Virus record (IMG/VR): IMGVR_UViG_2917408641_000004
Direction: 5' to 3' (one strand)
Length of the DNA stretch: 44,025 nucleotides
Origin: a virus
Lineage: Duplodnaviria; Heunggongvirae; Uroviricota; Caudoviricetes
Below, piece after piece: positions 20 to 33,844 of the stretch. The position numbers and the translations under genes are program-made. Position 1 is the first letter of the stretch; each line of letters starts with the position of its first letter. The notes beneath the pieces were generated by a model. That model did no database searches. It was given only the letters and a program-made list of their open reading frames with translations, and was not told where the DNA came from.

Positions 20-1315
20 TTAATTTTTCATTGCTTCGTTATGGGGCATGGTTGGGGCAAACTCGCTTAACTGTGTATTTAACAAAGCTACCTGTGCATT
101 ATTGTTTTCAGACATCCATTTTCCGTATACCTGAAATACCATTTGCGCATCTGCATGGCCCATCTGGTTTGCTATAAATGCCGGGTTAGCACCAGCTGTC
201 AGCGACCAGCAGGCATAAGTATGTCTCGACTGATATGATTTTCGATGGCGGAGTCCGGCACGTTTTATCGCTGCGTCCCACATCTGCCTTATTGAGTCAA
301 CGGTAAAATGGTCACCATAATTTTTTACTCTCGCTGACACTTCAGGTTGAAAAACAAAGGTGCATTTATGTTTTTCTGTTCTGCCATACTCTCTGAGGTG
401 AACATCAATGATATGCTCTTTGCTCAGTCTCGTTAATGTCATCTGACTCCGGAGAGCGTCGATTGCTGGCTTAATAAGATGAATGACCCGATTGGTTCCC
501 GCCTGTGTTTTTGGTACCGTGAAACGGTCTTTTGCTAAATTTCTCCTGATCATCATTGTTCCATTTTTCAGATCTATGTCCTCCCATCCAAGTGCACACA
601 GCTCACCAGGGCGAACGCCAGTATAAACAGAAACACACCATAAATTTTTGGCTTGCTGATTTCTGCACGCATCGATAAGACGGATGAATTCCTCCCGCGA
701 AAGAGGATCCGGAATGGTTCTTGATTCCTTTAATGGCGAGATCCCCTTAAACGGGTTATCTGCCAGGTAACCGTTATCAACACCAAACTGGAACACGGCG
801 TTAAGATTTGTCATGTAATTATTTACAGTTACAGCCGATCTCCCTGGTTGTGTAACAATATAGTTACTTTTGGGGATCTGGTATCCAGTCAGTAGCTCTT
901 TACGAACCTCCAGTAATTTTTCTTTATTAATCGATGAGGCAAGATTTTTTTCACCGATTATGCTCAGGATATTTTTGATGACGGCACGGTATGTGTTGAG
1001 TGATGTTTTTGCGACTTCAGTTTCTTTCAGTGCCAGAAATTTTTCAGCCAGTTCTTTTATGGTTAAATCTTGTCGGGTCTCACCAAATTTTTCCAGATTG
1101 CGTGAGGAGGGAAACTGTTTTGCATAGTCGAAAACACCAGTTTTTATTGCGTAACAAACAGAGGCGCGTAGCTCACCTGCAACGCGCCTGTTTTTTGCTG
1201 TGTCAGGAACCCCCAGGTTTTCCCTGACTCTTACGCCTTTATAAACAAACCAGATACGTAATTTCCCTCCATGGTTTTCCACGCCTGTCGGATATTTCAT
1301 TTCAACTTCTCTCAT
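20..1315 (-). CDS. int: Phage tyrosine integrase
   Basis: 431-aa ORF; C-terminal catalytic region with tyrosine-recombinase signatures (..SRHTYACWSL.., ..MGHADAQMVFQVYGKW..); located at prophage edge next to an excisionase-like gene. Confidence 0.9.
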   Translation of the reverse strand: MREVEMKYPTGVENHGGKLRIWFVYKGVRVRENLGVPDTAKNRRVAGELRASVCYAIKTGVFDYAKQFPSSRNLEKFGETRQDLTIKELAEKFLALKETEVAKTSLNTYRAVIKNILSIIGEKNLASSINKEKLLEVRKELLTGYQIPKSNYIVTQPGRSAVTVNNYMTNLNAVFQFGVDNGYLADNPFKGISPLKESRTIPDPLSREEFIRLIDACRNQQAKNLWCVSVYTGVRPGELCALGWEDIDLKNGTMMIRRNLAKDRFTVPKTQAGTNRVIHLIKPAIDALRSQMTLTRLSKEHIIDVHLREYGRTEKHKCTFVFQPEVSARVKNYGDHFTVDSIRQMWDAAIKRAGLRHRKSYQSRHTYACWSLTAGANPAFIANQMGHADAQMVFQVYGKWMSENNNAQVALLNTQLSEFAPTMPHNEAMKN

Positions 1316-5966: not shown

Positions 5967-6374
5967 TTATCTTTTATTTGTCCGCTGACGGGCTTTTAGT
6001 AATTCTTCAAAGAGTTTATTGAAGTTTTTTACTCGAGCTCGCATTTCGGCGAGCTGGGTATCCTGTTCTGATTCTGGCAGTGCATTAAACAGCTCAAGGA
6101 GCTCTAGTTCTTTGGGAGATAAGGCAACTGGCTTCTCAACAGGTGGTGTTGGTTGCTTGTCTTCATCGCCAAATAGAATCCATGTTGGTGAGCATTGCAA
6201 TACTTTGCTGAGGGCAAAAAGGTTCTTCCCTGTAGGTTCACTATCATCCCGTTCCCATTGTGATACAGACACATGGGAGATTTTCAGGGCTTTAGCAAGA
6301 GACCTTTGGGTGTGTTTGAGGTTTTTCCGACGATACCTAATGCGTTCGCCGATAGTTAAATTTTTTGTATCCAT
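5967..6374 (-). CDS. Prophage repressor, HTH XRE family (RacR/CI-like, no S24 peptidase domain)
   Basis: 135 aa; N-terminal helix-turn-helix (QRSLAKALKISHVSVSQWER); divergently arranged with a cro-like gene across an operator-like palindromic intergenic region. Confidence 0.8.
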   Translation of the reverse strand: MDTKNLTIGERIRYRRKNLKHTQRSLAKALKISHVSVSQWERDDSEPTGKNLFALSKVLQCSPTWILFGDEDKQPTPPVEKPVALSPKELELLELFNALPESEQDTQLAEMRARVKNFNKLFEELLKARQRTNKR

Positions 6375-10535: not shown

Positions 10536-10772
10536 ATGATGAACATCGAAGAACTGCGTAAAATTTTTTGTGAAGATGGCCTCTATGCTGTGTGCGTTGA
10601 AAATGGAAATCTTGTTAGTCATTACCGCATTATGTGTTTGCGAAAGAATGGGGCTGCGTTAATTAATTTTGTGGATGGTCGAGTGACAGACGGATTTATC
10701 TTGCGCGAAGGTGAGTTTGTCACTTCATTACAGGCACTGAAAGAGATCGGAATAAAAGCAGGCTTTTCGTAA
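10536..10772 (+). CDS. Rem-like small protein, 3' end replaced by IS66-family insertion
   Basis: 78-aa ORF whose last codon and stop are supplied by the IS end; removing the IS and one TSD copy restores an 83-aa ORF ending ..GFSAFAEE, the size I recall for Qin Rem; family call by synteny. Confidence 0.5.
   Translation: MMNIEELRKIFCEDGLYAVCVENGNLVSHYRIMCLRKNGAALINFVDGRVTDGFILREGEFVTSLQALKEIGIKAGFS
10761..10768. repeat. 8-bp target-site duplication of IS66-family element (left copy; right copy 14906-14913)
   Basis: GGCTTTTC directly flanks both imperfect terminal inverted repeats. Confidence 0.8.
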
Positions 10773-11121
10773 CCGGCTCATTTAAACCGTCTGGTCTGTT
10801 TCCTCCGGCTCTACAAAAATAATGTCCATCATTTTTAATGGACACTATCGTATGAAACACCGGACCTGGATCACTGAAGCTTTACGTCTTCACTTTGAAG
10901 AACATTTACCCCGGGTTGTGGCCGGGCGTCGCCTGGGTGTACCAAAATCAACAGTTTGTAGTATGTTCGTGCGCTTTCGGAGAGCTGGCCTTTCGTGGCC
11001 TTTGCCCGCAGGCATGTCGGAGCAGGAACTTGATGCCTGCCTTTACGGACAATTTTCCACGGTACCAGTCGTACGTCCTGAAAGCACCGTTATATCCGAA
11101 GCCCCCGTGGTAAAAAAACGT

Positions 11122-11133
11122 CCCCGGCGGCCC
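11122..11133. repeat. 12-bp target-site duplication of IS4 (left copy; right copy 12560-12571)
   Basis: CCCCGGCGGCCC present immediately outside both IS4 ends. Confidence 0.85.
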
Positions 11134-12559
11134 TAATGCCAGTCAGTTAAGCAACTGACTGGCTCTTTTTCGGGGCTGTGGGGTATTTCCAGGGCCTCTC
11201 CTTTACCACTCTCGGGAAGGCCCTTTCCCTTCTTGTCGGTAATTTCACAAGTTGTCCCATACTTGCAAGATCGCGCATCAGCTCCGGTATACGTCCCGGT
11301 GAAGCGCCCTGCAATGTCATCAGCATTCTCATCACCATTCCGCATGATTCTGAGAAACTCAGTTGATTCGGCCAGTAACCTTTCAGATGTTCTGCCATTT
11401 TAATCATCTGATATCTCACCAGATTATAAGCCAGTAAGACACCCCACAGCTCTTGCTCCACAAGCTCCGGCTTTTTACTTCTCAGCGTCAGCCTGCTCAG
11501 TTGCATCGTCTGTTTTATCTCCCTGTATCCCAGTTCGATTTCCCAGCGATGACTGTACAGATCCGCCATTTCTCCTCCGGGGAAGCGCATGGCGTCCGTC
11601 ATCGACGTCAGCAGATGGCAGACTTTTCCTTTGCGCGTCACGGTCAGCAGGCGGGCTGTCACCTCATTTCCCAGCCCCGGCCACTTTTTTCGTGCCTGCG
11701 GGCTGGTTTTCAGCTTCACCAGATGATCGCCTTTACCCAGTTTTCTGATCTCTTCATATTGCGCTCCCTTTCTGAGAGGGATCATCCAGTGGCGGTGTTC
11801 TCCCGCCTGGCTCCAGGCATTTAACAGTCCCAGTGAGTAATAACCTTTATCCATTAACGTCAGGGTGTTATCGCCGGTTTGTTCTATAAGTTGCTCAGCA
11901 AGCTCATTTTCGCTGTTCTTCATCGTGCCGAAGGCTGCAGCCGTCAGCAGATGGCTGGTCAGTTCCATCTGGCAGACCATTTTGACCTGCGGGTAGAGCG
12001 CCGGGTTCCCGGCATGTGTCTGGCGGGGGAAGGCTGCATCGTTCTCTGGTGTATCCGGTGTGCGCCAGAACACACCATCGATGGCCAGCAGGGTCAGGCC
12101 GCACCAGTGCGGATGCGGCGTGGCGTTATGCCAGAGCTGCGCTGTTTTCGTGAACACGCGGCGGACAGCCTCACTTCCCAGACGCTGGCGGGCCTGAATA
12201 ACGGCACTGGGGGCAACGAAGGGGCGATTGCCCGGCAGCATGATGTCCAGGCGATTCACAATCTGGTGAAGAGGTTCTTTACGCTCAAGCGCCATGCCAA
12301 CAATACACCAGACCATCATTTCGAGGGGAAGACGGCGCTTGCGTAGCGTTACAGTACCTGATTCGGCAAGGCAACGAGAGATGAGTTCGGGGTCGAGGTA
12401 ATCCCCCAGAGAAGTCAGTGGGTTACGCAGAGAATCGTAACGGGATACCAAATCAAGGGCCTGTCCAATGAGCATAAAAAAATCCGGAAACGAGTGAGCG
12501 TTTCCGGATTCTTACACAGCCACTGGATCGGTCAACTGATCCTTAACTGATCGGCATTA
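11134..12559 (-). mobile_element. IS4, complete copy
   Basis: 1426 bp, matching the known IS4 length; terminal inverted repeats TAATGCC(A/G)..TCAGTTAAG; single 442-aa transposase; 12-bp TSD within the expected 11-13 bp range. Confidence 0.9.
11147..12475 (-). CDS. insG: IS4 transposase
   Basis: 442-aa ORF filling the IS4 element; IS4-family DDE transposase. Confidence 0.9.
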
Positions 12560-12571
12560 CCCCGGCGGCCC
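12560..12571. repeat. 12-bp target-site duplication of IS4 (right copy)
   Basis: CCCCGGCGGCCC, identical to 11122-11133. Confidence 0.85.
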
Positions 12572-12936
12572 AACTTCCCTTATGAGTTTAAAATCGCCTT
12601 AGTGGAGCAGTCACTGCAGCCCGGAGCCTGTGTGGCGCAGATCGCCCGGGAAAACGGAATCAACGATAACCTGCTCTTCAACTGGCGCCATCAATACCGG
12701 AAAGGTGGCCTGCTGCCTTCCGGAAAAAATATGCCGGCACTGCTTCCCGTGACGTTAACGCCGGAGCCGGATAATAAAATCCCGGCCCCCGCACAGGAAC
12801 CAGAGCAGATAAATACACCGTCCGACAGTCTGTGTTGTGAGCTGGTTCTGCCGGCCGGAACTCTCAGGCTTAAAGGTAAACTGACGCCGGCGTTATTACA
12901 GACACTTATCCGCGAAATAAAAGGGAGCAGCCACTG

Positions 12937-13284
12937 ATGATATCTCTCCCTGCCGGTTCGCGTATCTGGCTGGTTGCAGGTATCACCGATATGCGAAATG
13001 GCTTTAACGGCCTGGCATCAAAAGTTCAGAACGTCCTGAAGGATGACCCGTTCTCCGGACACCTGTTCATCTTCCGCGGACGCCGGGGTGACCAGATAAA
13101 AGTGTTGTGGGCTGACAGTGACGGACTGTGCCTCTTCACCAAACGCCTGGAGCGGGGCCGCTTCGTCTGGCCAGTCACCCGTGACGGCAAGGTGCACCTT
13201 ACTCCGGCTCAGTTATCCATGCTTCCTGAAGGTATCAACTGGAAGCACCCGAAACGAACGGAACGCGCTGGAATCCGCATATAA
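12937..13284 (+). CDS. tnpB: IS66-family TnpB (Orf2)
   Basis: 115 aa; start overlaps tnpA stop (ATGA); typical IS66 Orf2 sequence (..IWLVAGITDMRNGFNGLA..). Confidence 0.85.
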   Translation: MISLPAGSRIWLVAGITDMRNGFNGLASKVQNVLKDDPFSGHLFIFRGRRGDQIKVLWADSDGLCLFTKRLERGRFVWPVTRDGKVHLTPAQLSMLPEGINWKHPKRTERAGIRI

Positions 13285-13303
13285 CCCGTTGTAAAGTGAG
13301 GAT

Positions 13304-14875
13304 ATGGACACCTCACTTGCTCATGAGAACGCCCGCCTGCGGGCACTGTTGCAGACGCAACAGGACACCATCCGCCAGATGGCTGAATACAACCGCCTGC
13401 TCTCACAGCGGGTGGCGGCTTATGCTTCCGAAATCAACCGGCTGAAGGCGCTGGTTGCGAAACTGCAACGTATGCAGTTCGGTAAAAGCTCAGAAAAACT
13501 TCGTGCAAAAACCGAACGGCAGATACAGGAAGCTCAGGAGCGAATCAGCGCACTTCAGGAAGAAATGGCGGAAACGCTGGGTGAGCAATATGACCCGGTA
13601 CTGCCATCCGCCCTGCGCCAGTCTTCAGCCCGTAAACCGTTACCGGCCTCACTTCCCCGTGAAACCCGGGTTATCCGGCCGGAAGAGGAATGCTGTCCTG
13701 CCTGTGGTGGTGAACTCAGTTCTCTGGGATGTGATGTGTCAGAGCAACTGGAGCTTATCAGCAGCGCCTTTAAGGTTATCGAAACACAACGTCCGAAACT
13801 GGCCTGTTGCCGGTGCGACCATATCGTGCAGGCACCAGTACCTTCAAAACCCATTGCACGCAGTTATGCCGGAGCGGGGCTTCTGGCCCATGTTGTCACC
13901 GGGAAATATGCAGACCATCTGCCGTTATACCGCCAGTCAGAAATATACCGTCGTCAGGGAGTGGAGCTGAGCCGTGCCACACTGGGGCGCTGGACCGGTG
14001 CCGTTGCTGAACTGCTGGAGCCGCTGTATGACGTCCTGCGCCAGTATGTGCTGATGCCCGGTAAAGTCCATGCCGATGATATCCCCGTCCCGGTCCAGGA
14101 GCCGGGCAGCGGTAAAACCCGGACAGCCCGGCTGTGGGTCTACGTCCGTGATGACCGCAACGCCGGTTCACAGATGCCCCCGGCGGTCTGGTTCGCGTAC
14201 AGTCCGGACCGGAAAGGTATCCATCCACAAAATCACCTGGCCGGTTACAGCGGTGTGCTTCAGGCCGATGCTTACGGTGGTTACCGGGCGTTATACGAAT
14301 CCGGCAGAATAACGGAAGCCGCGTGTATGGCTCATGCCCGGAGAAAAATCCACGATGTGCATGCAAGAGCGCCCACCGACATCACCACGGAAGCCCTGCA
14401 GCGTATCGGTGAACTGTATGCTATCGAGGCAGAGGTCCGGGGCTGTTCAGCAGAACAGCGTCTGGCGGCAAGAAAAGCCAGAGCCGCGCCACTGATGCAG
14501 TCACTGTATGACTGGATACAGCAACAGATGAAAACACTGTCGCGTCACTCAGATACGGCAAAAGCGTTCGCATACCTGCTGAAACAGTGGGATGCACTGA
14601 ACGTGTACTGCAGTAATGGCTGGGTGGAAATCGACAACAACATCGCAGAGAACGCCTTACGGGGAGTGGCCGTAGGCCGGAAAAACTGGATGTTCGCGGG
14701 TTCCGACAGCGGTGGTGAACATGCGGCGGTGTTGTACTCGCTGATCGGCACATGCCGTCTGAACAATGTGGAGCCAGAAAAGTGGCTGCGTTACGTCATT
14801 GAACATATCCAGGACTGGCCGGCAAACCGGGTACGCGATCTGTTGCCCTGGAAAGTTGATCTGAGCTCTCAGTAA
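13304..14875 (+). CDS. tnpC: IS66-family transposase TnpC
   Basis: 523 aa; N-terminal coiled-coil/leucine zipper, CxxC..CxxC zinc motif (CPACGG..CCRCDH) and DDE-type C-terminal region characteristic of IS66 transposases. Confidence 0.85.
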
Positions 14876-14905
14876 ATATCAATACGGTTCTGACGAGCCG
14901 CTTAC

Positions 14906-23174: not shown

Positions 23175-23387
23175 ATGTCTAACAAAATGACTGGTTTAGT
23201 GAAATGGTTTAACCCTGAAAAAGGTTTTGGTTTCATCACGCCGAAAGATGGTAGCAAAGATGTGTTTGTCCATTTCTCAGCTATTCAGAGCAACGATTTC
23301 AAAACGTTAACTGAGAATCAGGAAGTCGAATTTGGTATTGAGAACGGACCTAAAGGCCCCGCGGCTGTTCATGTTGTGGCACTTTGA
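23175..23387 (+). CDS. cspI: Cold-shock protein CspI
   Basis: 70-aa product [70 protein letters not shown]. Confidence 0.8.
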
Positions 23388-23594
23388 GGTAGAAAATATT
23401 ACAAACCATATTCACTTTAGATGCCCGTGTTGCCATGGTTCTCAGTATAGAACATCATCTTTTGATGTTTCTGACAGGAATCCTTTCGGGGCAAAATGTA
23501 TCTTTTGTAAATCAATGATGATTACATTTGATAATATTTCACAATACTTAAATGTTAGCCGTCTGTCGTTAGATTTAAGAAAGTGAAAATGAAG

Positions 23595-23614
23595 GCTCCT
23601 TCGGGAGCTTTTTT
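23595..23614 (+). terminator. Rho-independent terminator after cspI
   Basis: GCTCC-TTCG-GGAGC hairpin followed by TTTTTT. Confidence 0.6.
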
Positions 23615-23658
23615 GCTTAGTGTCTAGTCGATGGATACTCACATATTACGGTAACATT

Positions 23659-23889
23659 ATGAAAAAAATAATAGTTTTTTTTAACTCTGAACCAGCAATG
23701 GTAGTGCCAGTGATGACCGGAGTTAACACCATCATGCGTGAATATCCAAATGGCGAAACAACACACCTCACTGTAATGGCTGCAGGGTTTCCATCTCTGA
23801 CCGGAGATCATAAAGTCATTTATGTAGCAGCGGATCGACATGTAACTTCAGAAGAAATTCTGGAAGCAGCAATGAGACTCTTGAATTGA
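23659..23889 (+). CDS. Hypothetical small protein
   Basis: 76 aa from ATG 23659; weak RBS; protein-like composition. Confidence 0.35.
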   Translation: MKKIIVFFNSEPAMVVPVMTGVNTIMREYPNGETTHLTVMAAGFPSLTGDHKVIYVAADRHVTSEEILEAAMRLLN

Positions 23890-24058
23890 TTTGATTCTAA
23901 TGCATTGATAATAAATGATAGTCATCTTTATCTGTTTGTGTGAAATTTAGACCGTCGTATGTTGATTATTGCGATGTTTCATCTTATCTTTTATACGTTT
24001 GCTCCATATAATTGACACTACTGTGTACCAGGAAAGTCATAACAGACTAAAAGAGGAA

Positions 24059-24234
24059 ATGATGAACATTGAAGAGTTAAAAACAAAAACAGAAGCAGAT
24101 ATTTCTGAATATATAACAAAAAAATCATTGAGCTTAAGAAAAAGACCGGGAAAGAAGTTACCAGTATCCAGTTTACTGCACGGGAAAAAATGACTGGTCT
24201 TGAAAGCTATGATATCAAGATTGATTTAATCTAG
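24059..24234 (+). pseudogene. gnsB: gnsB-like gene with -1 frameshift in an A7 tract
   Basis: SD AAGAGG then MMNIEELKTKTEADISEYITKK; frame breaks at the A7 run 24118-24124; the shifted frame continues ..KIIELKKKTGKEVTSIQFTAREKMTGLESYDIKIDLI to stop at 24234, matching GnsA/GnsB proteins end to end. Confidence 0.6.
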
Positions 24235-24529
24235 TATGTTTATAGTATTAGCATCAATTTCTCATCAGATGCTATTCAACAATACAAATTACCCATAAAC
24301 CTCGTTTTTACGGGGTTTTGTTATATTTAAACATTACCGAATAGGTATAAATCTCGATTGTCGATGGTATTGGTTGTGTGACAATACCTAGTCTTTCCGG
24401 TATGCCTGAAGAGAATACAAACGACAGATTATGTAAGGGAAACGCGCTGAAACTTTCACTCTTTCATGCTGAGTGATTTGACGTTATATTTTTAGCCGCA
24501 AGTGAAGAGCAAACGCATGGAGCGACAAA

Positions 24530-24736
24530 ATGCATAAAGATCAATACACTGATGCCCCCTCCCAGGAGCAGGTTCGTGTAAAAACTATGCTTAATAGCAC
24601 CATTTCGATGGGTTACCCGGATGTTGTAATTGCATGTATAGAACATCAAGTGTCTCTGGAAGCATTCAGGGCAATTGAGGCCGCGTTAGTAAAGCACGAT
24701 AAGAATACGAAGGATTATTCCCTGGTGGTTGACTGA
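24530..24736 (+). CDS. Hypothetical small protein
   Basis: 68 aa; SD GGAG 5 nt upstream of ATG. Confidence 0.4.
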
Positions 24737-25097
24737 TCACCATAACTGCTAACCATTCTGACCATTTCACAAGTGACAGAGTCAATATCGTATTCTGTCA
24801 CTGTCAGGCTAATACAGTACTGCAATTCAACTACAGCAATGCCTCGTATTTAGGTGAATTTACAATATCGTCCAGTTCGGATGCCGGCTGCATTTCTGAA
24901 GATAAGGCATTTCGGTTCTCGTATTTTCCCCTCATGCTCGTCAGTCCTGCGCGTAGTAAGAAACAGGACACTCACACTAATTTGTGTGGGCATGCTGTGA
25001 TGTCCTTCTGAATTATCCCCATGCCATTATGTAAAGCTCTGTTACAGATGCTCGTCACGGTTGTCAGGCTGTCGGGTCCTCCCAGTGGGGGGCCCTG

Positions 25098-25120
25098 CCA
25101 CGGGGCGGGAGCGTCGCGGA
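25098..25120. other. cos site (cosN-like nicking region)
   Basis: ACG-GGGCGGGAGCGT-CGCGG closely resembles lambda cosN ACG-GGGCGGCGACCT-CGCGG; lies about 180 bp upstream of the terminase small-subunit gene, as in lambda. Confidence 0.6.
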
Positions 25121-25298
25121 AAAAGGCTAGTTTTTGCATTTCCATGGCGGCGGCAGCATGTTTGGTAATTTATTGATAATTAAAAGTTATTTCTCTTTTC
25201 ACCTGTACAATATTTTTTTCTCCCTGTCATTAGACCAGTTTACAATTAATTGAAATATATAAATAAACATGATTTTCACCTGCCAGATGGAGTTGCTT

Positions 25299-25826
25299 AT
25301 GTCAAATGTGAGCGGGATCGGTGATGCTTATTACTGGAGTGTTTTTAAAATCGCTGAGGCCTTTGGGCTTCACCGGGACACAGTAAAAAAACGGCTTCTC
25401 GCGGCCAACACTCCTGTGGCTGCGACTGTCAGGGGGAACCCCGTTTACGCCCTGCAGCATGTCGGGCCAGCCCTGTTTAGTGTGAAGCATGAGGCAGCAG
25501 ACTCTGTTCATGATCCATCCCGTATGGAGCCGAAAGAGAGAAAGGACTGGTACCAGTCTGAAAATGAAAGGATCAAGCTGGAAAAGGAGCAGCGAAAACT
25601 CATCCCCGTTGATGAAGTAGTCATCGTCTATTCGTCCATGAGAAAGGCTGTCGTCCAGGTTCTGGAGACAATTCCGGATGTTCTTGAACGCGATTGCGCC
25701 CTGACTCCTCAGGCCGTCGGCGTTGTACAGCAGGCAATTGATGACCTGCGATACACTCTTCAGGAAAAATCCTACGAGGCTTGTGCTGCTGAATTAATTC
25801 CTGATGAGGAAGGAGAGAGTCTCTAG
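25299..25826 (+). CDS. Terminase small subunit
   Basis: 175 aa from ATG 25299 (SD GGAG); N-terminal HTH-like DNA-binding region; directly upstream of terminase large subunit and downstream of cos. Confidence 0.6.
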   Translation: MSNVSGIGDAYYWSVFKIAEAFGLHRDTVKKRLLAANTPVAATVRGNPVYALQHVGPALFSVKHEAADSVHDPSRMEPKERKDWYQSENERIKLEKEQRKLIPVDEVVIVYSSMRKAVVQVLETIPDVLERDCALTPQAVGVVQQAIDDLRYTLQEKSYEACAAELIPDEEGESL

Positions 25827-25834
25827 GAGGAATA

Positions 25835-27934
25835 ATGGGTTTTTCATCAGCCCGAAATTTGGGAAGGGACATATCGGCAGGATTTTCCCCACCACGTCGC
25901 ATGCCGATTTCGGAGGCTGTAAAAAAATTCATGCGTGTTCCCAAGGGGGCTGGTAACTCGGTGCCATGGGATCCTGAACTGACACCCTACATCATTGAGC
26001 CCATGAACTGCCTGGCATCGCGTGAATACGATGCGGTGATTTTTGTTGGTCCTGCGCGAACAGGGAAGACCATTGGTCTGATCGATGGATGGATTGTCTA
26101 TACCATCGTTTGCGATCCTTCGGACATGCTCGTTGTGCAGATGACCGAAGATAAGGCCCGCGAGCATTCTAAAAAGCGCCTCGACAGAACGTTCAGAAGC
26201 AGTGCGGCGGTAAAGAAAAGAATGAGTCCACGTCGTAACGACAATAATGTCCATGATAAGACGTTCAGGGATGGCTCGTTCCTTAAAATTGGTTGGCCCT
26301 CGGTCAACATTATGTCGTCGTCGGATTACCGGTTTGTCGCCTTAACCGATTACGACCGTTTTCCGGAGAATATCGACAGCGAGGGTGATGGTTTCTCCCT
26401 GGCCTCAAAACGTACCACCACATTTATGTCCGCCGGGATGACTCTGGTGGAGAGCTCGCCGGGACGTGACATCTGCGACAGCAAATGGCGACGTAAGTCG
26501 CCTCATGAAGCGCCACCGACGACTGGTATTCTTTCCCTTTACAATCGTGGTGACCGCCGCCGCTGGTACTGGTCATGTCCGCACTGCGGTGAATATTTTC
26601 AGCCAGCCATGGATGCCATGACCGGCTACCGTAATGAACCGGATCCCTTTAAAGCCAGTGAGGCGGCGTATCTACTTTGCCCGCACTGCAGCGGCATTAT
26701 CACTGCGGAGAAAAAGCGTGAGCTCAATAGTGCAGGAGTCTGGTTGCGTGAAGGTCAGGTCATTGATCGTAACGGCAACGTTTCCGGTGAACCGCGCCGC
26801 TCCCGTATCGCCAGTTTCTGGATGGAAGGGCCAGCTGCTGCGTATCAGACCTGGGCGCAACTGGTTTACAAATTACTGACTGCAGAACAGGAGTATGAAG
26901 CGACAGGAAGCGAAGAAACACTCAGGGCGGTTATCAACACCGACTGGGGATTGCCTTATCTTCCTCGTGCCAGCATGGAGCAACGAAAAAGTGAACTGCT
27001 TGAGCAGCGGGCAGAGCCAGTTCCTTCCCGCAGTGTGCCGGATGGCATTAATTTCCTTGTGGCGACAGTGGATGTGCAGGCGGGACGTCATCGCCGTTTT
27101 GTGGTTCAGGTAACGGGCTATGGCAGTCGTGGCGAACGCTGGATTATTGATCGTTACAACATCACGCAGTCATTGCGCAGTGACTGCGACGGGGAGAGCC
27201 AGCGAATTGATCCGGCCAGCTATCCAGAAGACTGGGATGTCCTGCTGACGGATGTTTTTCATAAAAGCTGGCCGCTGGCCTCCGATCCTTCTCAACAAAT
27301 GCGACTGATGGCAATGGCGGTGGACTCCGGCGGTGAAGACGGGGTCACTGATAATGCCTATAAATTCTGGCGTCGTTGCCGTCGTGATGGCCTTGGTAAA
27401 CGTATTTACCTGTTTAAGGGTGACAGCATCCGGCGCGCAAAACTGATCAGCCGTACATTCCCTGATAACACCGGACGAACGGGCCGCCGGGCGCAGGCCG
27501 CAGGTGATGTGCCGCTCTGGCTTCTTCAGACGGATGCCCTGAAAGACCGGGTGAATAACGCGTTATGGCGTGACTCGCCAGGTCCAGGCTATGTGCATTT
27601 CCCTGACTGGCTGGGGAGCTGGTTTTACGACGAACTGACGTATGAAGAGCGGAGCAGTGACGGGAAATGGAGTAAGCCGGGTCGCGGTGCCAACGAAGCT
27701 TTTGACCTGATGGTGTATGCCGAGGCTCTGGTCATTCTGCATGGATACGAAAAGATCCGCTGGCCGGATGCACCGGAGTGGGCGAGCCGGGAAACCTGGC
27801 TGGAGTGTGTCCAGGACAGTACCGAACCGTCATCCTCACCGGAACCGGTATCCACGCCTATTAAAAAACAAAAACGGAAGAAAACAGTAACTGACGATGT
27901 TAACCCCTGGCTGACTTCCGGAGGATGGTTATGA
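25835..27934 (+). CDS. Terminase large subunit (lambda gpA-like)
   Basis: 699 aa; SD AGGAGG; Walker A motif VGPARTGKT; gpA-family architecture. Confidence 0.9.
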   Translation: MGFSSARNLGRDISAGFSPPRRMPISEAVKKFMRVPKGAGNSVPWDPELTPYIIEPMNCLASREYDAVIFVGPARTGKTIGLIDGWIVYTIVCDPSDMLVVQMTEDKAREHSKKRLDRTFRSSAAVKKRMSPRRNDNNVHDKTFRDGSFLKIGWPSVNIMSSSDYRFVALTDYDRFPENIDSEGDGFSLASKRTTTFMSAGMTLVESSPGRDICDSKWRRKSPHEAPPTTGILSLYNRGDRRRWYWSCPHCGEYFQPAMDAMTGYRNEPDPFKASEAAYLLCPHCSGIITAEKKRELNSAGVWLREGQVIDRNGNVSGEPRRSRIASFWMEGPAAAYQTWAQLVYKLLTAEQEYEATGSEETLRAVINTDWGLPYLPRASMEQRKSELLEQRAEPVPSRSVPDGINFLVATVDVQAGRHRRFVVQVTGYGSRGERWIIDRYNITQSLRSDCDGESQRIDPASYPEDWDVLLTDVFHKSWPLASDPSQQMRLMAMAVDSGGEDGVTDNAYKFWRRCRRDGLGKRIYLFKGDSIRRAKLISRTFPDNTGRTGRRAQAAGDVPLWLLQTDALKDRVNNALWRDSPGPGYVHFPDWLGSWFYDELTYEERSSDGKWSKPGRGANEAFDLMVYAEALVILHGYEKIRWPDAPEWASRETWLECVQDSTEPSSSPEPVSTPIKKQKRKKTVTDDVNPWLTSGGWL

Positions 27935-28143
27935 ACCAGAATGATATCGAAGCCATGATTCAGCGTTATACGGAAGCTGAAATGGCGGTGCTGGACGGAA
28001 AATCCGTCACTTTTAATGGTCAGCAGATGACCATGGAAAACTTATCTGAGATCCGGCAGGGGCGGCAGGAGTGGGAGCGCCGCCTTGCGGCTCTGATTAC
28101 ACGACGACGGGGGCATCCCGGGTACCGGCTGGCGAGGTTCTGA
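27931..28143 (+). CDS. W: Head-tail joining protein W-like
   Basis: 70 aa; ATGA overlap with terminase stop; lambda gpW-like size and C-terminal RRRG motif. Confidence 0.7.
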   Translation: MNQNDIEAMIQRYTEAEMAVLDGKSVTFNGQQMTMENLSEIRQGRQEWERRLAALITRRRGHPGYRLARF

Positions 28144-28667
28144 TGGCAATTCTTGATGATGTGATTGGCGTTTTTTCACCAGGATGGAAAGCGGCAAGGC
28201 TGCGTTCCCGTGCGGTGATCCAGGCTTATGAGGCCGTAAAAACGACGCGGACACACAAAGCCCGACGGGAGAACCGAACTGCCGACCAGTTAAGCCAGTA
28301 CGGGGCCGTGTCGTTACGTGAGCAGGCCCGTTACCTTGATAACAACCACGATCTGGTCATTGGTGTATTTGACAAGCTGGAAGAACGGGTGGTGGGGAAA
28401 AGACCGGTGATGCCGTGGATTGACCCTGTTAAGGAGGCTGAGGCCTGGAAAATTCAGATTCGTGGTGGAGCGGCGACAGAATCAGACTGGGTACGTGCAG
28501 GTGGTCGTAATCCAGATGATGTCAAACGTCGGCGCAAGGCCGAAATTGATGAAAACCGCAAGCTGGATCTGGTATTTGATACCGATCCGGCCAGTGATAA
28601 AGGAGGCAGCAGTGCCGCAACGAAACGACAGGAGCCGCAGCACACCGACGACCAGTCCGAAGAATAA
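28143..28667 (+). pseudogene. Portal protein remnant with large internal in-frame deletion
   Basis: Only 174 aa where a portal of about 500 aa is expected; N-terminal part (..LREQARYLDNNHDLVIGVFDKLEERVVG) and C-terminal part (..PWIDPVKEAEAWKIQIRGGAATESDW..) align with the N- and C-terminal regions of lambda gpB; TGATG coupling to W. Confidence 0.55.
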
Positions 28668-28680
28668 TTCCTGGTTCAGG

Positions 28681-30639
28681 ATGCAGGCAGGTCACCAGAG
28701 TGACGCGGATATTTATATTTATGACGAGATTGGTTTCTGGGGTGTTACGGCGAAGCAGTTTATCAGTGATCTGAATGCACTGGGCGATATCACCCACATT
28801 AATCTCCATATTAATTCACCGGGTGGCGATGTCTTTGAAGGCATCGCCATTTTTAATGCACTGAAAACACATGGTGCGTCCATTACCGTTTATGTCGACG
28901 GTGTGGCGGCGTCAATGGCGTCGGTCATTGCGATGGTGGGAAACCCGGTCATTATGCCGGAAAACTCCTTCATGATGATTCATAAACCATTTGGATTTAC
29001 GGGCGGTGATGCGGAGGACATGCGCACCTATGCCGACCTGCTCGATAAAGTTGAGGCGGTTCTGTTACCCGCTTATGCACAGAAAACCGGGAAAACCACC
29101 GATGAAATTGCTGCCATGCTGGCGGATGAGACCTGGATGTCCGGTGCCGAATGTCTGGCACAGGGATTTGCTGATCAGGTGACACCAGCCGTTAAGGCAA
29201 TGGCATGTATTCAGTCAAAACGTACAGAGGAATTTAAAAAGATGCCGGAATCCATTCGAAACATGATTACTCCGCCACGCAACAGTGCTCCACGCGTACA
29301 GGATGATGAACCTGCAGCCTCCCGGACGCCAGTGCAGGCAGCAGCACCCGTGGTGGATGAAAACAGTATCCGTGCGCAGGTACTGGCAGAGCAAAAAGCG
29401 CGTGTAAACGGTATTAATGATCTGTTTGCCATGTTTGGCGGGCGTTATCAGACGCTGCAGGCCCAGTGTCTTGCCGATCCTGAATGTTCGCTGGAGCAGG
29501 CCCGTGAAAAGCTGTTGAACGAGATGGGGCGCGAGTCCACGCCATCCAATAAAAATACCCCGGCTCATATTTATGCCGGTAACGGTAATTTTGTGGGGGA
29601 CGGGATTCGCCAGGCGCTGATGGCGCGTGCCGGATTTGAAAAAACCGAACGTGATAATGTCTACAACGGGATGACCCTGCGTGAATATGCCCGTATGTCA
29701 CTAACTGAACGGGGTATTGGGGTTTCCGGTTATAACCCGATGCAGATGGTCGGTGCGGCGTTCACACACAGTACGTCTGACTTCGGTAATATTCTGCTGG
29801 ATGTTGCGAACAAAGCCATTCTGCAGGGCTGGGAAGATGCCCCTGAAACCTATGAACAGTGGACGCGGAAAGGTCAGTTGTCTGATTTTAAAATTGCCCA
29901 TCGTGTGGGTATGGGGGGCTTCAGTGCTCTGCGTCAGGTGCGTGAAGGGGCGGAATATAAATACGTCACCACCGGAGATAAACAGGCCACTATTGCACTG
30001 GCGACCTATGGCGAGCTGTTCAGTATCACCCGTCAGGCCATTATCAATGATGATCTGAATATGCTGACCGATGTCCCGATGAAACTGGGCCGTGCGGCGA
30101 AATCCACTATTGCCGATCTGGTTTATGCCATTCTGACGTCTAACCCGAAAATCTCCACAGATAATGTAAGTCTGTTCGATAAAGCGAAACATGCAAACGT
30201 ACTGGAGAGCGCTGCAATGGACGTGGCATCGCTGGATAAAGCCCGCCAGTTGATGCGCGTTCAGAAAGAGGGGGAGCGTCATCTGAATATTCGTCCTGCG
30301 TTCGTACTGGTACCGACGGCGATGGAGTCTGTTGCTAACCAGGTCATTCGCTCCTCAAGTGTCAAGGGGGCTGACATTAACGCCGGTATTATTAACCCGG
30401 TGAAAGATTTTGCGACCGTTATTGCAGAGCCTCGTCTTGATGATAACAGCCAGACCACCTTCTACCTGGCTGCGTCAAAAGGCTCCGATACGATTGAAGT
30501 GGCTTATCTCAACGGTGTGGATACGCTATATATTGATCAGATGGAGGGCTTCAGTGTGGATGGCGTGACAACGAAAGTGCGTATTGACGCCGGTGTCGCG
30601 CCAGTTGATCACCGCGGTCTGGTGAAATGTACGGCGTAA
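28681..30639 (+). CDS. Fused prohead protease (ClpP-like) - scaffold - major capsid protein
   Basis: 652 aa; N-terminal ClpP/S14 protease fold (YIYDEIGFWGV..INSPGGDVFEGIAIFNAL..SMASVIAMVG..MIHKP), central coiled-coil-like region, C-terminal HK97-fold-type capsid region; single uninterrupted frame. Confidence 0.75.
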   Translation: MQAGHQSDADIYIYDEIGFWGVTAKQFISDLNALGDITHINLHINSPGGDVFEGIAIFNALKTHGASITVYVDGVAASMASVIAMVGNPVIMPENSFMMIHKPFGFTGGDAEDMRTYADLLDKVEAVLLPAYAQKTGKTTDEIAAMLADETWMSGAECLAQGFADQVTPAVKAMACIQSKRTEEFKKMPESIRNMITPPRNSAPRVQDDEPAASRTPVQAAAPVVDENSIRAQVLAEQKARVNGINDLFAMFGGRYQTLQAQCLADPECSLEQAREKLLNEMGRESTPSNKNTPAHIYAGNGNFVGDGIRQALMARAGFEKTERDNVYNGMTLREYARMSLTERGIGVSGYNPMQMVGAAFTHSTSDFGNILLDVANKAILQGWEDAPETYEQWTRKGQLSDFKIAHRVGMGGFSALRQVREGAEYKYVTTGDKQATIALATYGELFSITRQAIINDDLNMLTDVPMKLGRAAKSTIADLVYAILTSNPKISTDNVSLFDKAKHANVLESAAMDVASLDKARQLMRVQKEGERHLNIRPAFVLVPTAMESVANQVIRSSSVKGADINAGIINPVKDFATVIAEPRLDDNSQTTFYLAASKGSDTIEVAYLNGVDTLYIDQMEGFSVDGVTTKVRIDAGVAPVDHRGLVKCTA

Positions 30640-30663
30640 ACGTCGCAGACAACAACTCTGATG

Positions 30664-30682
30664 GCCCGTAAGGGCTTTTTTT
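30664..30682 (+). terminator. Weak terminator-like hairpin after capsid gene
   Basis: GCCC-GTAA-GGGC followed by TTTTTTT. Confidence 0.35.
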
Positions 30683-30725
30683 GTACCTGAAATCAGCCCC
30701 TGAACGGGGCTGTGCGGAGACAGTT

Positions 30726-31049
30726 ATGGCAAAGAATTTTGTAGAAGAAGGAAAAACGGTGGCGATTGTTGCCAGTGCAGCCATCAGCAGCGGAGATCTG
30801 GTGCAGGTGGGCGATGTTTTTGCGGTGGCGCTGACCGATATTCCACAGGGTGAAACAGGCGACGGCATGACCGAAGGTGTGTTTATGCTGCCTAAGCTGA
30901 AAACGGATGACATGAAAACGGGTAAGAAGGTTTATCTGAAGTCCGGAAAAGTTCAGCTGACTAACAGCGGCTCTGATCCGCTGGTCGGGGTTGTCTGGGC
31001 AGATGCCGGAACCAGTGCAGAAGAAGTGCCGGTAAAACTCAATGTCTGA
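30726..31049 (+). CDS. Head-associated protein (possible decoration/DUF2190-like)
   Basis: 107 aa from ATG 30726 (SD GGAGA); Gly/Val-rich small protein between capsid and head-tail genes. Confidence 0.4.
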   Translation: MAKNFVEEGKTVAIVASAAISSGDLVQVGDVFAVALTDIPQGETGDGMTEGVFMLPKLKTDDMKTGKKVYLKSGKVQLTNSGSDPLVGVVWADAGTSAEEVPVKLNV

Positions 31050-31317
31050 TCCCTTTTCCCGGCTGGCAGCGCGTATGGATGCTATCACGGTTAGAAAGAT
31101 GGGAAAGACAGCCTCGATTAATGATGTCGATATGACTGTGATCCCGGGAGAAACACTGGCAGAGCTGAATGCTCTGTCCGGACCTGCGGTCTCTCTGGTG
31201 GTGTTTTCTTCGGGATACCGCCCACGGCGCGGGGATCGCGTTGTTTATGACGGACAACAATGGACGGTCACACGGAATGAACGCTTTAACGGTAAGCCAA
31301 TGATCTTTATTGAGTAA
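31042..31317 (+). CDS. Head-tail joining protein, lambda FII-like
   Basis: 91 aa; position before Z; RRGD and W.V.R motifs as in gpFII. Confidence 0.55.
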   Translation: MSDPFSRLAARMDAITVRKMGKTASINDVDMTVIPGETLAELNALSGPAVSLVVFSSGYRPRRGDRVVYDGQQWTVTRNERFNGKPMIFIE

Positions 31318-31328
31318 AGAGGTGTGGG

Positions 31329-31907
31329 ATGAAGGGGCTTGAGAATGCCATCCGCAATCTGAACAGCCTTGATACCCGTATGGTGCCACAGGCCAGCGCA
31401 TGGGCGATAAACCGTGTGGCACAGAAAGCGGTCTCGGTTACCACCCGGCAGGTTGCCGGGAATACCGTTGCGGGAGATAACCAGGTGAAAGGGATCCCCC
31501 TGAAACTGGTACGTCAGCGTGTCCGGGTGTTTAAAGCCAGTCCGTCAGGAAAAATGACGGCCAGGATCCGCGTTAACCGGGGCAATCTGCCTGCCATTAA
31601 GCTGGGGACAGCCCGGGTCAGACTGGCCCGGCGTGGTGGAAAACTGCAGTACCGTGGCAGTGTGCTGAAGGTGGGTAAATATCTTTTCCGGGATGCGTTT
31701 ATTCAGCAACTGGCGAATGGTCGCTGGCATGTGATGCGGCGTATTGATGGCAAAAATCGTTACCCCATTGATGTGGTGAAAATCCCGCTGTCCGGACAGC
31801 TGACACAGGCATTTGAAGATGCCCGCGACCGCATCATTGCTGCGGAAATGCCGAAACAGCTGGGGTATGCACTGAAACAACAACTGAGGTTATGGCTGGC
31901 CCGATGA
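31329..31907 (+). CDS. Z: Tail completion protein Z
   Basis: 192 aa starting MKGLENAIRNLNSL; SD AGAGG; lambda gpZ-like in size and sequence. Confidence 0.8.
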   Translation: MKGLENAIRNLNSLDTRMVPQASAWAINRVAQKAVSVTTRQVAGNTVAGDNQVKGIPLKLVRQRVRVFKASPSGKMTARIRVNRGNLPAIKLGTARVRLARRGGKLQYRGSVLKVGKYLFRDAFIQQLANGRWHVMRRIDGKNRYPIDVVKIPLSGQLTQAFEDARDRIIAAEMPKQLGYALKQQLRLWLAR

Positions 31908-32305
31908 ACCGACATACACAAATCCGCCAGGTCGTACTGGCACGCCTTCGAGAACAGTGTGGAGACAGCGCCACGTTTTTTGACGGGCTTCCGGCATTTG
32001 TTGATGCGCAGGAACTGCCTGCCGTGGCGGTGTGGCTGAGTGATGCTCAGTACACCGGAAAAATGACGGATGAAGATGACTGGCAGGCTGTTCTGCATAT
32101 TGCTGTCTTCATCCGGGCACAGGCACCGGATTCAGAGCTGGATATGTGGATGGAGAGCACCATTTTCCCGGCCCTGAATGATGTACCAGCACTTTCCGGA
32201 CTCATCGACACCCTGATCCCACTCGGTTTTAACTATCAACGTGATAATGAGATGGCCACCTGGGCGATGGCGGAAATCACGTACCAGATCACGTACACGA
32301 ATTAA
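31904..32305 (+). CDS. U: Tail terminator protein U
   Basis: 133 aa from ATG 31904 (ATGA overlap with Z); ..ATFFDG..PAVAV..DSELD.WMES..PALS..ITY matches gpU. Confidence 0.8.
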   Translation: MNRHTQIRQVVLARLREQCGDSATFFDGLPAFVDAQELPAVAVWLSDAQYTGKMTDEDDWQAVLHIAVFIRAQAPDSELDMWMESTIFPALNDVPALSGLIDTLIPLGFNYQRDNEMATWAMAEITYQITYTN

Positions 32306-32315
32306 GGAGGTGGTA

Positions 32316-33059
32316 ATGACCACACCAAATCCACTGGCAAAAACGAAAGGTGCGGGAACGACGTTCTGGATGTATACCGGCAAGGGCGATGCGTTTGCGA
32401 ACCCTTTATCGGACACTGACTGGCTGCGTCTTGCGATGGTGAAGGATCTGCAACCTGGCGAAATGACCGCTGATGCAGAAGATGACACTTATCTCGATGA
32501 TGAAGATGCAGACTGGAAAACGACAACCCAGGGGCAGAAATCCGTTGGTGATACTTCGGCGACGCTGGCCTGGCGTCCGGGTGACAGCGGGCAGAAAAAA
32601 CTGGTTCAGTTGTTCGACTCCGGTGAAGTCTGCGCGTTTCGTATCAAATATCCCAACAGCACTGTTGATGTTTTCCGTGGCTGGCTGAGCTCACTGGGTA
32701 AAACCATTGCCTCAAAAGACGTGATGACCCGCACTGTGAAAATCAGCGGTGTGGGGCGTCCGTATCTGGCAGAGGAAGGCACTGAAACCGTGAGCGTTAC
32801 CGGGCTGACAGTATCACCGGCATCTGCCAGTGTAAAAGTGGGAGCAACCACCACGCTGACCTTTACAGTAAAACCTGACGGAGCCAGTGACAAAGCGATC
32901 AGTGTGCATTCGTCAGATCCACAGACTGCCACGGTTACCCTGAACGGACTTGTGGCCACGGTAAAAGGCGTGAAGCAGGGCAGTGTCAGCATTGTGGGCA
33001 TGACCGCTGACGGGAATTTTGTGGCTGTGGCTGCGGTGACTGTCAGCGCAGCAGGTTAA
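32316..33059 (+). CDS. V: Major tail protein V with C-terminal Ig-like domain
   Basis: 247 aa from ATG 32316 (SD AAGGAGG); ..KGAGTTFWMYTGKGDAFANPLSD..YLDDEDADW..VDVFRGWLSS.. matches gpV. Confidence 0.9.
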   Translation: MTTPNPLAKTKGAGTTFWMYTGKGDAFANPLSDTDWLRLAMVKDLQPGEMTADAEDDTYLDDEDADWKTTTQGQKSVGDTSATLAWRPGDSGQKKLVQLFDSGEVCAFRIKYPNSTVDVFRGWLSSLGKTIASKDVMTRTVKISGVGRPYLAEEGTETVSVTGLTVSPASASVKVGATTTLTFTVKPDGASDKAISVHSSDPQTATVTLNGLVATVKGVKQGSVSIVGMTADGNFVAVAAVTVSAAG

Positions 33060-33079
33060 CAGGACGATACTCATCATTT

Positions 33080-33103
33080 GCCCCGGTTATTCGGGGCTTT
33101 TTT
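33080..33103 (+). terminator. Terminator-like hairpin after major tail gene
   Basis: GCCCCG-GTTATT-CGGGGC followed by TTTTTT. Confidence 0.5.
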
Positions 33104-33116
33104 GCAGGTGGAGAAC

Positions 33117-33506
33117 ATGATGTTTCTGAAACAGGACACGTTTAATTATGAAAAACAGTCCGTGGTGCTCAGTGAGCTGTCCGGGCTGCAGAGAATTGAA
33201 TATCTGACGTTTGTTCAGCAGCGAACGGCAAAGTTTGATGCCGGGGAGGGAGAACTGCCGGAGGCTGAACGACAGATTGCTTTTCTGCGGATGGGGATGG
33301 ATATCAATGCCTGGCTGGTTTCCCGCTCACTGTGGAATGCGGAACAGTCTCAGGATGTTGAGACGCTTTACGCATCCGTTATTACAACATGGTCGTATGA
33401 TGCCCTGGGTGCGGGGGCGGAGATGGTTCTGTCGCTGAGCGGTATGGGGGCCATTGATAATGCCGGGGATTTGGAGCATGAGGTGCTGACGCCGGAAAAG
33501 TCCTGA
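33117..33506 (+). CDS. G: Tail assembly chaperone G
   Basis: About 130 aa starting MMFLKQDTFN; ..LSELSGLQRIE..SLW.. as in gpG. Confidence 0.8.
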   Translation: MMFLKQDTFNYEKQSVVLSELSGLQRIEYLTFVQQRTAKFDAGEGELPEAERQIAFLRMGMDINAWLVSRSLWNAEQSQDVETLYASVITTWSYDALGAGAEMVLSLSGMGAIDNAGDLEHEVLTPEKS

Positions 33507-33844
33507 CGCGGGAAATGCAGTTTGTCATGCGGCTTGCCCGGGAGTTCCGGCGGGCAGACTGGCGGCGGATGCTGTCGGAAATGTCGGCCACTGAGCTTGG
33601 TGAGTGGGGCGATTATTTCCGGATGCAGAGCTTCAGTGATGTGTGGATGGATGCGCAGTTTGCCTCGCTGAAGGCATTGATCGTGAGAATGGTGTCCGGC
33701 AGCAGTGATGCTGCGGTGGCTGATTTCAGCCTTTTACCGGAAGAGAACGGGATACCGGAGCGAACGGACGAAGAACTGATGCATCTTGGGGAAGGTATTT
33801 CCGGAGGTGTGCGTTATGGACCAGATAGCCAACCTGGTCATTGA
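33482..33844 (+). CDS. T: Tail assembly chaperone T segment, probably expressed as G-T fusion by -1 frameshift
   Basis: ORF in the -1 frame relative to G, open from 33482, overlapping the last 7 codons of G; arrangement identical to lambda G/T. Confidence 0.65.
   Translation, partial: GADAGKVLTREMQFVMRLAREFRRADWRRMLSEMSATELGEWGDYFRMQSFSDVWMDAQFASLKALIVRMVSGSSDAAVADFSLLPEENGIPERTDEELMHLGEGISGGVRYGPDSQPGH

Follow-up and report, generated by a model that had tools for sequence, protein, structure and literature searches.

In Gifsy-2, the genes for the prohead protease and the coat protein are fused (Effantin et al. 2010, Virology 402:355, as reported in PMC12315714 and PMC8538268). According to the literature, the protease and the middle part are removed by autoproteolysis, so that the decorated T=7 capsid contains only the C-terminal part; such processing is known for Gifsy-2 only. 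The Gifsy-2 decoration protein is trimeric (PMC8538268). Two other head systems share some of these traits. In HK97 (gp4 and gp5), an HK97-type coat protein likewise carries an N-terminally fused scaffold part, the delta-domain, which is cut off by the phage protease, but the protease is encoded by a separate gene and the coat is cross-linked. The HK97 protease belongs to the herpesvirus-like S80/U9 family. In lambda (C, Nu3, E and D), the protease is fused to the scaffold by means of the nested genes C and Nu3, whereas the coat gene E is separate and is followed by a gene for a trimeric decoration-type protein. The lambda head protease is of the SppA/S49 type.

Here we describe a head gene in a 44,025-nucleotide stretch of phage DNA (the window), which is 100% identical to CP025979.1 (Escherichia marmotae HT073016). 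The gene product is 69% identical to Gifsy-2 STM1034.3n along the whole 652 aa counted from the ATG at 28681 (all residue numbers below refer to this 652-aa version), and both are single ORFs with a ClpP-like protease, a middle part of roughly 200 aa and a coat domain. Gene order is also common to the two, i.e. terminase, a small W-like gene, portal, fusion gene, a DUF2190/cement decoration gene and lambda-like tail genes, and mEp460 has a matching order around its fusion gene. The Gifsy-2 decoration protein STM1034 is 61% identical to the 107-aa DUF2190 product. Together with a clear match to the curated model NF045540 (see below), this confirms the Gifsy-2-type tripartite arrangement that had been proposed in a first-pass annotation of the DNA. 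The differences from Gifsy-2 are a shorter variable linker, leucine instead of the proline that Gifsy-2 keeps at position 616, and the deletion of most of the partner portal gene, with which the present copy cannot build a virion. As in lambda, the head genes of this lambdoid prophage follow a lambda-family portal in the late operon, and a gene for a trimeric decoration-type protein comes after the coat gene, while the ClpP/S14-like type of the fused protease and the presence of a decoration gene in place of cross-linking set the group apart from HK97. Our reading, which we hold to be very probable, is that this is a Gifsy-2-type lambdoid head gene in a defective Qin-like prophage of E. marmotae HT073016, still open but most likely a relic that is drifting without selection.

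From 28420 onward, the plus-strand reading frame stays open until the TAA at 30637-30639, and the segment from ATG 28681 to 30639 encodes exactly 652 aa with no internal stop, as had been claimed. The open frame had been described correctly; its start, on the other hand, probably lies at GTG 28612, which makes the CDS 69 nt longer upstream and the product 675 aa. This is suggested by the motif AAGGAGG (7 nt), situated 5 nt before this GTG and the sole strong Shine-Dalgarno sequence in the frame, and the RefSeq/PGAP protein begins at the same codon, also giving 675 aa. Furthermore, the Met encoded at 28681 is aligned with an Ile in the Gifsy-2 protein, so that ATG 28681 cannot be the start for the family. 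At the place matching the hairpin and T-run directly after the gene, a rho-independent terminator is annotated in phage mEp460. The features of the locus are listed in Table 1.

Table 1. Features of the head region and of the insertion elements upstream of it (positions in the window; aa counted from ATG 28681 for the fusion protein).
Feature	Position	Strand	Basis or remark
IS66-family element (~4.1 kb)	10769..14905		8-bp duplication
IS4, nested in the IS66-family element	11134..12559		12-bp duplication
Small terminase (DUF1441)	25269..25826	+	apparently intact
Large terminase, 699 aa	25835..27934	+	apparently intact
Small W-like head-tail adaptor	27931..28143	+	apparently intact
Lambda-family portal gene remnant, 174 aa	28143..28667	+	two-piece BLAST against intact copies
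ClpP-like prohead protease / scaffold-like linker / major capsid protein fusion gene (start probably GTG 28612)	28612..30639	+	ORF, Shine-Dalgarno, NF045540, PHROG 133
ClpP/S14-type serine protease domain, aa 23-168	28747..29184	+	PF00574 CLP_protease, E 4.6e-36
Middle segment, aa 169-353 (~185 aa)	29185..29739	+	between Pfam domains
Major capsid protein domain, aa 354-649 (Phage_capsid_4 / Mu gpT-like family)	29740..30627	+	PF25209, E 2.7e-53
Codon CTA = Leu616	30526..30528	+	Pro in every other homologue examined
Terminator-like hairpin + T-run directly after the fusion gene	30663..30683	+	mEp460 counterpart
Head decoration ('cement', DUF2190) gene, 107 aa	30726..31049	+	PF09956, 1.4e-20; PHROG 122

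Domain searches found PF00574 and PF25209 within one polypeptide, both far beyond chance. The protease part also matches the head maturation protease model NF045542 (E 1.3e-64) and aligns with the ClpP of PDB entry 1y7o (E 8e-16). In this alignment Ser78 and His101 correspond to the catalytic Ser and His of ClpP, and Glu150, which lies beside Asp149, to the catalytic Asp; all four residues (S78, H101, D149 and E150) are invariant across 20 aligned sequences. The capsid domain has an additional match to PF10124 (E 3.7e-08) and is weakly similar in sequence to solved capsid proteins (8rkc/8rkx at E 1.8e-4, 9jod at E 7.6e-3).

The middle segment gave no Pfam match of its own, and a search of solved structures (PDB) with aa 169-353 returned nothing meaningful. 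It begins with a conserved stretch, followed by a variable linker rich in Pro, Ala, Thr and Gln (about aa 197-226, nt 29269-29358), whose length differs among homologues, and then by short predicted helices. Columns 225-265 of the 20-sequence alignment have indels and low conservation. The AlphaFold2 model of the 652 aa, built from this alignment, in which all sequences are at least 75% identical, was unusable (mean pLDDT 35.7, pTM 0.20), and only the helices at 227-250, 257-265 and 271-284 (a span of about aa 227-284) reached a pLDDT of ~60-80. The 'coiled-coil-like' character earlier attributed to the segment is not demonstrated; what is found is a variable linker with short predicted helices. 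We infer its function to be that of a scaffold or delta-domain equivalent, presumably including the maturation cleavage site or sites.

The fusion gene is a known, ordinary and already annotated phage head gene. The alignment of its product with NF045540 (scaf_prot_MCP1) scores 978.4 bits, where the cut-off is 475, and spans all but the first and last of the 652 profile positions (2-651), and PHROG 133 matches it end to end with 1180 bits. The exact protein is present in RefSeq as WP_154663975.1 of E. marmotae HT073016, where it already carries the fusion name. At the DNA level the gene is 98.8-99.1% identical to the isolated phages mEp460, cdtI, phi458, Ayreon and Tritos, and of the 5426 complete E. 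coli genomes searched, 2184 (~40%) contain matching DNA, the copies there being annotated as 'ClpP-like prohead protease/major capsid protein fusion protein'. The members of NF045540 from E. coli lambdoid phages and from E. coli/Shigella prophages have the same length and start, with 98.8-99.9% DNA identity; compared with the E. coli members, the protein differs by P616L only, and the adjoining portal deletion is absent from them. All of the best 120 homologues listed are at least 75% identical, while homologues in phages of Pseudomonas, Stenotrophomonas and Ralstonia are at 31-56% identity.

The surrounding prophage resembles Qin, the defective prophage of E. coli K-12. The window contains the DicF sRNA, hok/sok and two csp genes whose leaders are of the cspA type, and at collinear positions its closest E. 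coli match has genes annotated as ydfT, essD, rrrQ, rzpQ, cspI, ymcF and gnsB. Scanning the window for tRNA genes yielded none. K-12 Qin has lost its head and tail genes, whereas its E. marmotae relative retains them, its decay being less advanced. One E. coli copy matches the head region at 99.9% identity, from which we conclude that the prophage is young and has had little time for mutations to build up. Also speaking against a relic, the fusion ORF is intact and is preceded by a strong ribosome-binding site, and the genes for the terminases, the decoration protein and the tail look whole; the packaging genes at 25269..28143 are equal in length to those in the E. coli relative. The prophage nevertheless carries three IS elements, and it has neither an uninterrupted early-to-late regulatory region nor a complete tail-fibre end. 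The nested IS66/IS4 insertion sits between the early region and the gene for a Q-type antiterminator, upstream of the latter, and likely blocks late transcription; an IS256-family transposase gene adjoins J, directly after it.

The portal gene was correctly described as damaged. It has lost 984 bp (328 codons) in frame, with the junction between 28401 and 28402 (junction sequence GGTGGGGAAAAGACCGGTGATG, in which no microhomology was found), and its product has shrunk from the 503 aa of intact relatives to 174 aa. Residues 1-86 and 415-502 are retained, and the remnant maps to residues 1-87 and 418-484 of the Gifsy-2 portal. Against TIGR01539 the remnant scores 94 bits, below the cut-off of 172.7, as compared to 458 bits for an intact portal. 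The deletion was present in none of the 5426 complete E. coli genomes, and the exact 174-aa mini-portal was found on no more than about five contigs, of which the identified ones belong to E. marmotae. An assembly artefact was rejected as its source, because the deletion occurs in the complete genome, in a same-strain draft and in an independent Logan assembly. With 328 of 503 portal codons gone, there should be neither a DNA-packaging vertex nor a tail attachment site, and thus no infectious particles, judging from what is known of Gifsy-2 and HK97.

The fusion gene itself is altered at one codon. P616L is the sole difference from the fusion protein of E. coli O157:H16, and all 19 homologues compared, which are 75-99% identical, have Pro616, as does Gifsy-2. 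A sister copy with the same portal deletion is present in the independent assembly SRR6001587. It keeps Pro616, with C at 30527 and hence the codon CCA, but a 1-bp deletion at 29320 breaks its fusion gene into parts of 264 and 429 aa. As this assembly was made automatically, the 1-bp deletion may be an error. Such a frameshift argues against selection for the gene. Between the window and the sister copy there are five base substitutions, four of them non-synonymous (codon positions assigned by hand).

From the Gifsy-2 and HK97 literature, a plausible course of events in a working phage can be drawn. The gene would yield one polypeptide, probably of 675 aa (~73 kDa), composed of a ClpP-like serine protease, a linker or scaffold-like segment and an HK97-type coat domain. 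By analogy, the C-terminal coat domains would build a T=7 procapsid that encloses the N-terminal parts, and the tethered protease would then trim off both itself and the linker. DNA packaging would accompany expansion of the shell, which would be decorated and stabilised by the DUF2190/cement protein encoded by the following gene.

If the gene were still functional in E. marmotae, induction might give empty, portal-less procapsids or capsids that process themselves but package no DNA. The intact ORF with its perfect Shine-Dalgarno sequence, the predicted catalytic residues Ser78 and His101 and the intact decoration gene are all in keeping with this, and since expression of the HK97 coat protein gives portal-less shells (PMC10275583), such empty shells are conceivable here too. 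The substitution P616L, on the other hand, hits a position that is invariant in 20 homologues, the ~4.1-kb IS66/IS4 insertion before the Q antiterminator is a likely block to late transcription, and the sister copy is frameshifted, so we regard a functional gene as unlikely. The earlier description of the gene as 'potentially assembly-competent' is doubtful on the same grounds. Quite unlikely, in our estimate, is a second product made from an internal in-frame start, e.g. Met188 at the border between protease and linker, by which a protease-free scaffold-capsid protein would set the ratio of protease to coat as with lambda C/Nu3. Met188 is invariant in the 20 homologues and conserved in Gifsy-2, and it is preceded, at a distance of ~10 nt, by the weak purine-rich motif GAGGAA. 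This motif, however, consists of Glu-Glu codons, which confounds its conservation with coding, and the only strong Shine-Dalgarno sequence in the frame is that of GTG 28612; among internal starts in the fusion frame none has a Shine-Dalgarno match of at least 6 nt, the site before Met188 being the only weak one, and there is no convincing counterpart to the nested lambda start.

More far-reaching is the idea of domestication, in which the capsid gene without its portal, and possibly the mini-portal too, is kept for a host function, such as an encapsulin-like compartment or interference with the assembly of incoming related phages. The deletion being in frame does permit a 174-aa fusion of the N- and C-terminal portal parts, and the capsid ORF is still open. 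An in-frame deletion is, however, expected by chance in one case out of three, the mini-portal was found only on the few contigs mentioned above and in none of the 5426 E. coli genomes, and one lineage with the portal deletion has a frameshifted fusion gene. In addition, the gene has neither a cargo gene nor an encapsulin-type setting; it is surrounded by terminase, decoration and tail genes in a late operon of lambdoid type that is complete. We regard domestication as extremely unlikely. A related proposal, which we find very improbable, is that the fusion gene, perhaps together with the mini-portal, is retained in E. marmotae to form a self-processing portal-less shell or to act as a decoy by which incoming phages of the Gifsy-2/mEp460 type are poisoned in their head assembly; the former, if true, would be a step toward an encapsulin-like compartment.

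The significance of the fusion gene beyond correct annotation is small, as the gene class has been known from Gifsy-2 since 2010 and has its own curated NCBIfam model, and it opens no new question. The locus offers a possible natural test of whether a coat-protease fusion can form a shell without a portal. It is a snapshot of early prophage decay in a Qin-type element, with an in-frame portal deletion found only in E. marmotae, a substitution of an otherwise invariant proline and a frameshifted sister copy.

On the plus strand, a reading frame without stop codons extends between 28420 and the TAA (30637-30639), and translation from the ATG at 28681 yields the uninterrupted 652 aa described in the first-pass annotation (amino acid numbers refer to this version). 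Domain searches located both a ClpP-like protease and a capsid domain in this one polypeptide, as had also been claimed, with Mu-like gpT as a secondary Pfam match in the capsid part. The fusion protein aligned end to end with PHROG 133 (1180 bits), and with positions 2-651 of 652 in the NCBIfam profile NF045540 (978 bits, the curated cut-off being 475 bits). Among solved structures, the N-terminal part matched ClpP (best 1y7o, 8e-16), and the C-terminal part gave weak matches to the capsid proteins 8rkc/8rkx (1.8e-4) and 9jod (7.6e-3). The catalytic Ser and His of ClpP align with Ser78 and His101 and its Asp with Glu150, all three being invariant among 20 aligned family members. The fusion of protease and capsid in one ORF is real and far above chance.

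The proposed Gifsy-2-type arrangement is confirmed by the alignment to Gifsy-2 STM1034.3n, 69% identical over the whole length, and by a gene order common to Gifsy-2, mEp460 and the window, i.e. small and large terminase, W-like gene, lambda-family portal, fusion gene, decoration gene and lambda-like tail. The decoration gene is 61% identical to its Gifsy-2 counterpart. In Gifsy-2, the prohead protease and coat genes are described as fused (Effantin et al. 2010, cited in PMC12315714), the decoration protein as trimeric and the capsid as T=7 (PMC8538268, PMC8814770). The DNA of the region is 98.8-99.1% identical to that of the isolated phages mEp460, cdtI, phi458, Ayreon and Tritos; matching DNA, annotated with exactly this fusion product name, occurs in 2184 out of 5426 complete E. 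coli genomes; and full-length relatives include Pseudomonas phages at 56% identity. The window comes from the Escherichia marmotae HT073016 chromosome, which is 100% identical (CP025979.1, 837010-849534) to window positions 22143-34667, and RefSeq already names the exact 675-aa protein, WP_154663975.1, as a fusion protein. The gene class is thus known and annotated, and none of it is new; what we find is a known gene type, correctly read in the first pass, inside a defective prophage. As a separate observation, the head genes (27900-31100) are 99.9% identical to those of an E. coli O157:H16 prophage and the flanking late region (21774-42229) about 97%, a pattern suggesting that prophages of E. 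coli and E. marmotae have recently exchanged the head segment.

The coding sequence most likely begins at the GTG at 28612, overlapping the 3' end of the portal gene by 56 nt, since AAGGAGG, 5 nt upstream, is the sole strong ribosome-binding site in the scanned frame (the ATG at 28681 has none), RefSeq/PGAP uses the same start, the residues NSWFRM directly preceding Met1 are conserved as protein in the family alignment, and this Met is replaced by Ile in Gifsy-2. The terminator-like hairpin downstream of the gene coincides with an annotated terminator in mEp460.

The middle segment (aa 169-353) had no family or structure match of its own in the family and solved-structure searches. In the family alignment it consists of a conserved stretch, a linker of variable length rich in Pro, Ala, Thr and Gln (around aa 197-226), and a conserved region. 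Within the latter, an otherwise poor structure model predicts three short helices (227-250, 257-265 and 271-284), to which pLDDT values of about 60-80 are limited. The segment is helical according to this model, and the coiled-coil-like character ascribed to it stays putative. It may serve as a scaffold, judging from the HK97 delta domain as a parallel and from the description of Gifsy-2.

Features of the prophage and of the fusion protein (nucleotide positions unless marked aa)
Feature	Position	Strand	Details
Integrase	20..1315	-	
DicF sRNA	4775-4826	-	Rfam, above gathering score
cI-like repressor	5967..6374	-	
sok antitoxin RNA	9995-10169	+	Rfam, above gathering score
IS66-family (ISCro1-like) element	10769..14905		flanking 8-bp duplication GGCTTTTC; nested insertion as a whole 10761-14913
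IS4, nested in IS66-family element	11134..12559		1426 bp; 12-bp duplication CCCCGGCGGCCC
cspA-type thermoregulator leader	19562-20001	+	Rfam, above gathering score
cspA-type thermoregulator leader	23017-23433	+	Rfam, above gathering score
Portal remnant (mini-portal)	28143..28667	+	174 aa; portal residues 1-86 and 415-502 kept
Fusion gene, most likely coding sequence	28612..30639	+	
CLP_protease domain	aa 23-168	+	Pfam E 4.6e-36
Phage_capsid_4 domain	aa 354-649	+	Pfam E 2.7e-53
Terminator-like hairpin	30663-30676		3' of fusion gene
DUF2190/cement decoration gene	30726..31049	+	next after fusion gene
IS256/Mutator-family transposase gene	42817-44025	-	directly after J tail-tip gene; runs off window end

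The portal gene is indeed damaged, as every close relative aligns to the region in two pieces. It lacks 984 bp (328 codons, in frame), with the junction between 28401 and 28402, where no microhomology was found. The remnant corresponds to residues 1-87 and 418-484 of the Gifsy-2 portal and scores 94 bits against TIGR01539 (cut-off 172.7 bits), as compared to 458 bits for the intact protein. Three assemblies carry the deletion, which rules out an assembly artefact. The junction occurred in none of the 5426 complete E. coli genomes searched, and exact matches to the mini-portal protein came from about five contigs, the identified ones being E. marmotae. From general phage biology, so reduced a portal would be unable to form the dodecameric ring, and packaging and tail joining would therefore be lost.

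Could the fusion gene nonetheless still be competent, as the first-pass annotation proposed, and form empty, portal-less shells? Expressed HK97 coat protein is reported to build such shells (PMC10275583), no damage is apparent in the fusion ORF and its ribosome-binding site or in the genes for terminases, decoration and tail, and the element is young, judging by head genes 99.9% identical to the E. coli copy; taken together, this leaves empty shells as an unlikely possibility that no observation supports. Four observations point to decay, and we consider competence doubtful. The sole amino acid difference from the O157:H16 copy, P616L, affects a proline shared by Gifsy-2 and by each of the 19 other homologues in the alignment (75-99% identity). 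A sister copy of the prophage region, from an independent assembly (L005, SRR6001587), has the same portal deletion and retains the ancestral Pro616, but one base is lost at 29320, splitting the fusion gene into 264 and 429 aa; after portal loss, the two lineages thus each gained a different change in this gene. Four of the five base substitutions between these copies over 12.5 kb are non-synonymous (codon positions assigned by hand).

The prophage is also rich in IS elements. The IS66/IS4 composite lies near the 3' end of a rem-like gene, between the early region and the downstream DUF968 and Q-type antiterminator genes, and the IS256/Mutator transposase follows J at the place of lom and the side tail fibre genes in relatives. 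With these insertions, it is doubtful that the late genes would be transcribed upon induction.

In an intact relative, a precursor of about 73 kDa would be made from the GTG, presumably as a single product. Judging from Gifsy-2 and HK97, its C-terminal coat domains would build a T=7 procapsid that encloses protease and linker. The Ser78/His101 protease would cut off the N-terminal third to half, and, as in Gifsy-2, the shell would expand and be decorated by the DUF2190 protein. In the window copy, this pathway would be broken by the loss of the portal and probably also by a failure of late transcription.

In public E. coli data, the fusion gene also occurs in one continuous frame with terminase, portal, tail L or tail J domains, as in seven of the homologues listed (P0008, P0035, P0036, P0063, P0066, P0080 and P0083). 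Such chimeric ORFs are many, so that prophages seem often to decay through large deletions within the head-tail module.

The early region carries an unusual lambdoid-phage cargo, a homologue of the epoxyqueuosine reductase QueH (8772-9551, plus strand, Pfam 2.7e-65). A low-GC stretch after the Q-type gene (17100-19200, 36-39% G+C), with no ORF of at least 100 aa and no family hit among those examined, may be degraded cargo. The window also contains hok/sok, lysis genes, an antiterminator of the ydfT type and two csp genes, each preceded by a cspA-type leader. It is a Qin-like lambdoid prophage, marked as a relative of E. coli Qin by DicF, sok and the cspA-type leaders. To our knowledge, Qin of K-12 is without head and tail genes, and the prophage studied here looks like an earlier stage of decay.
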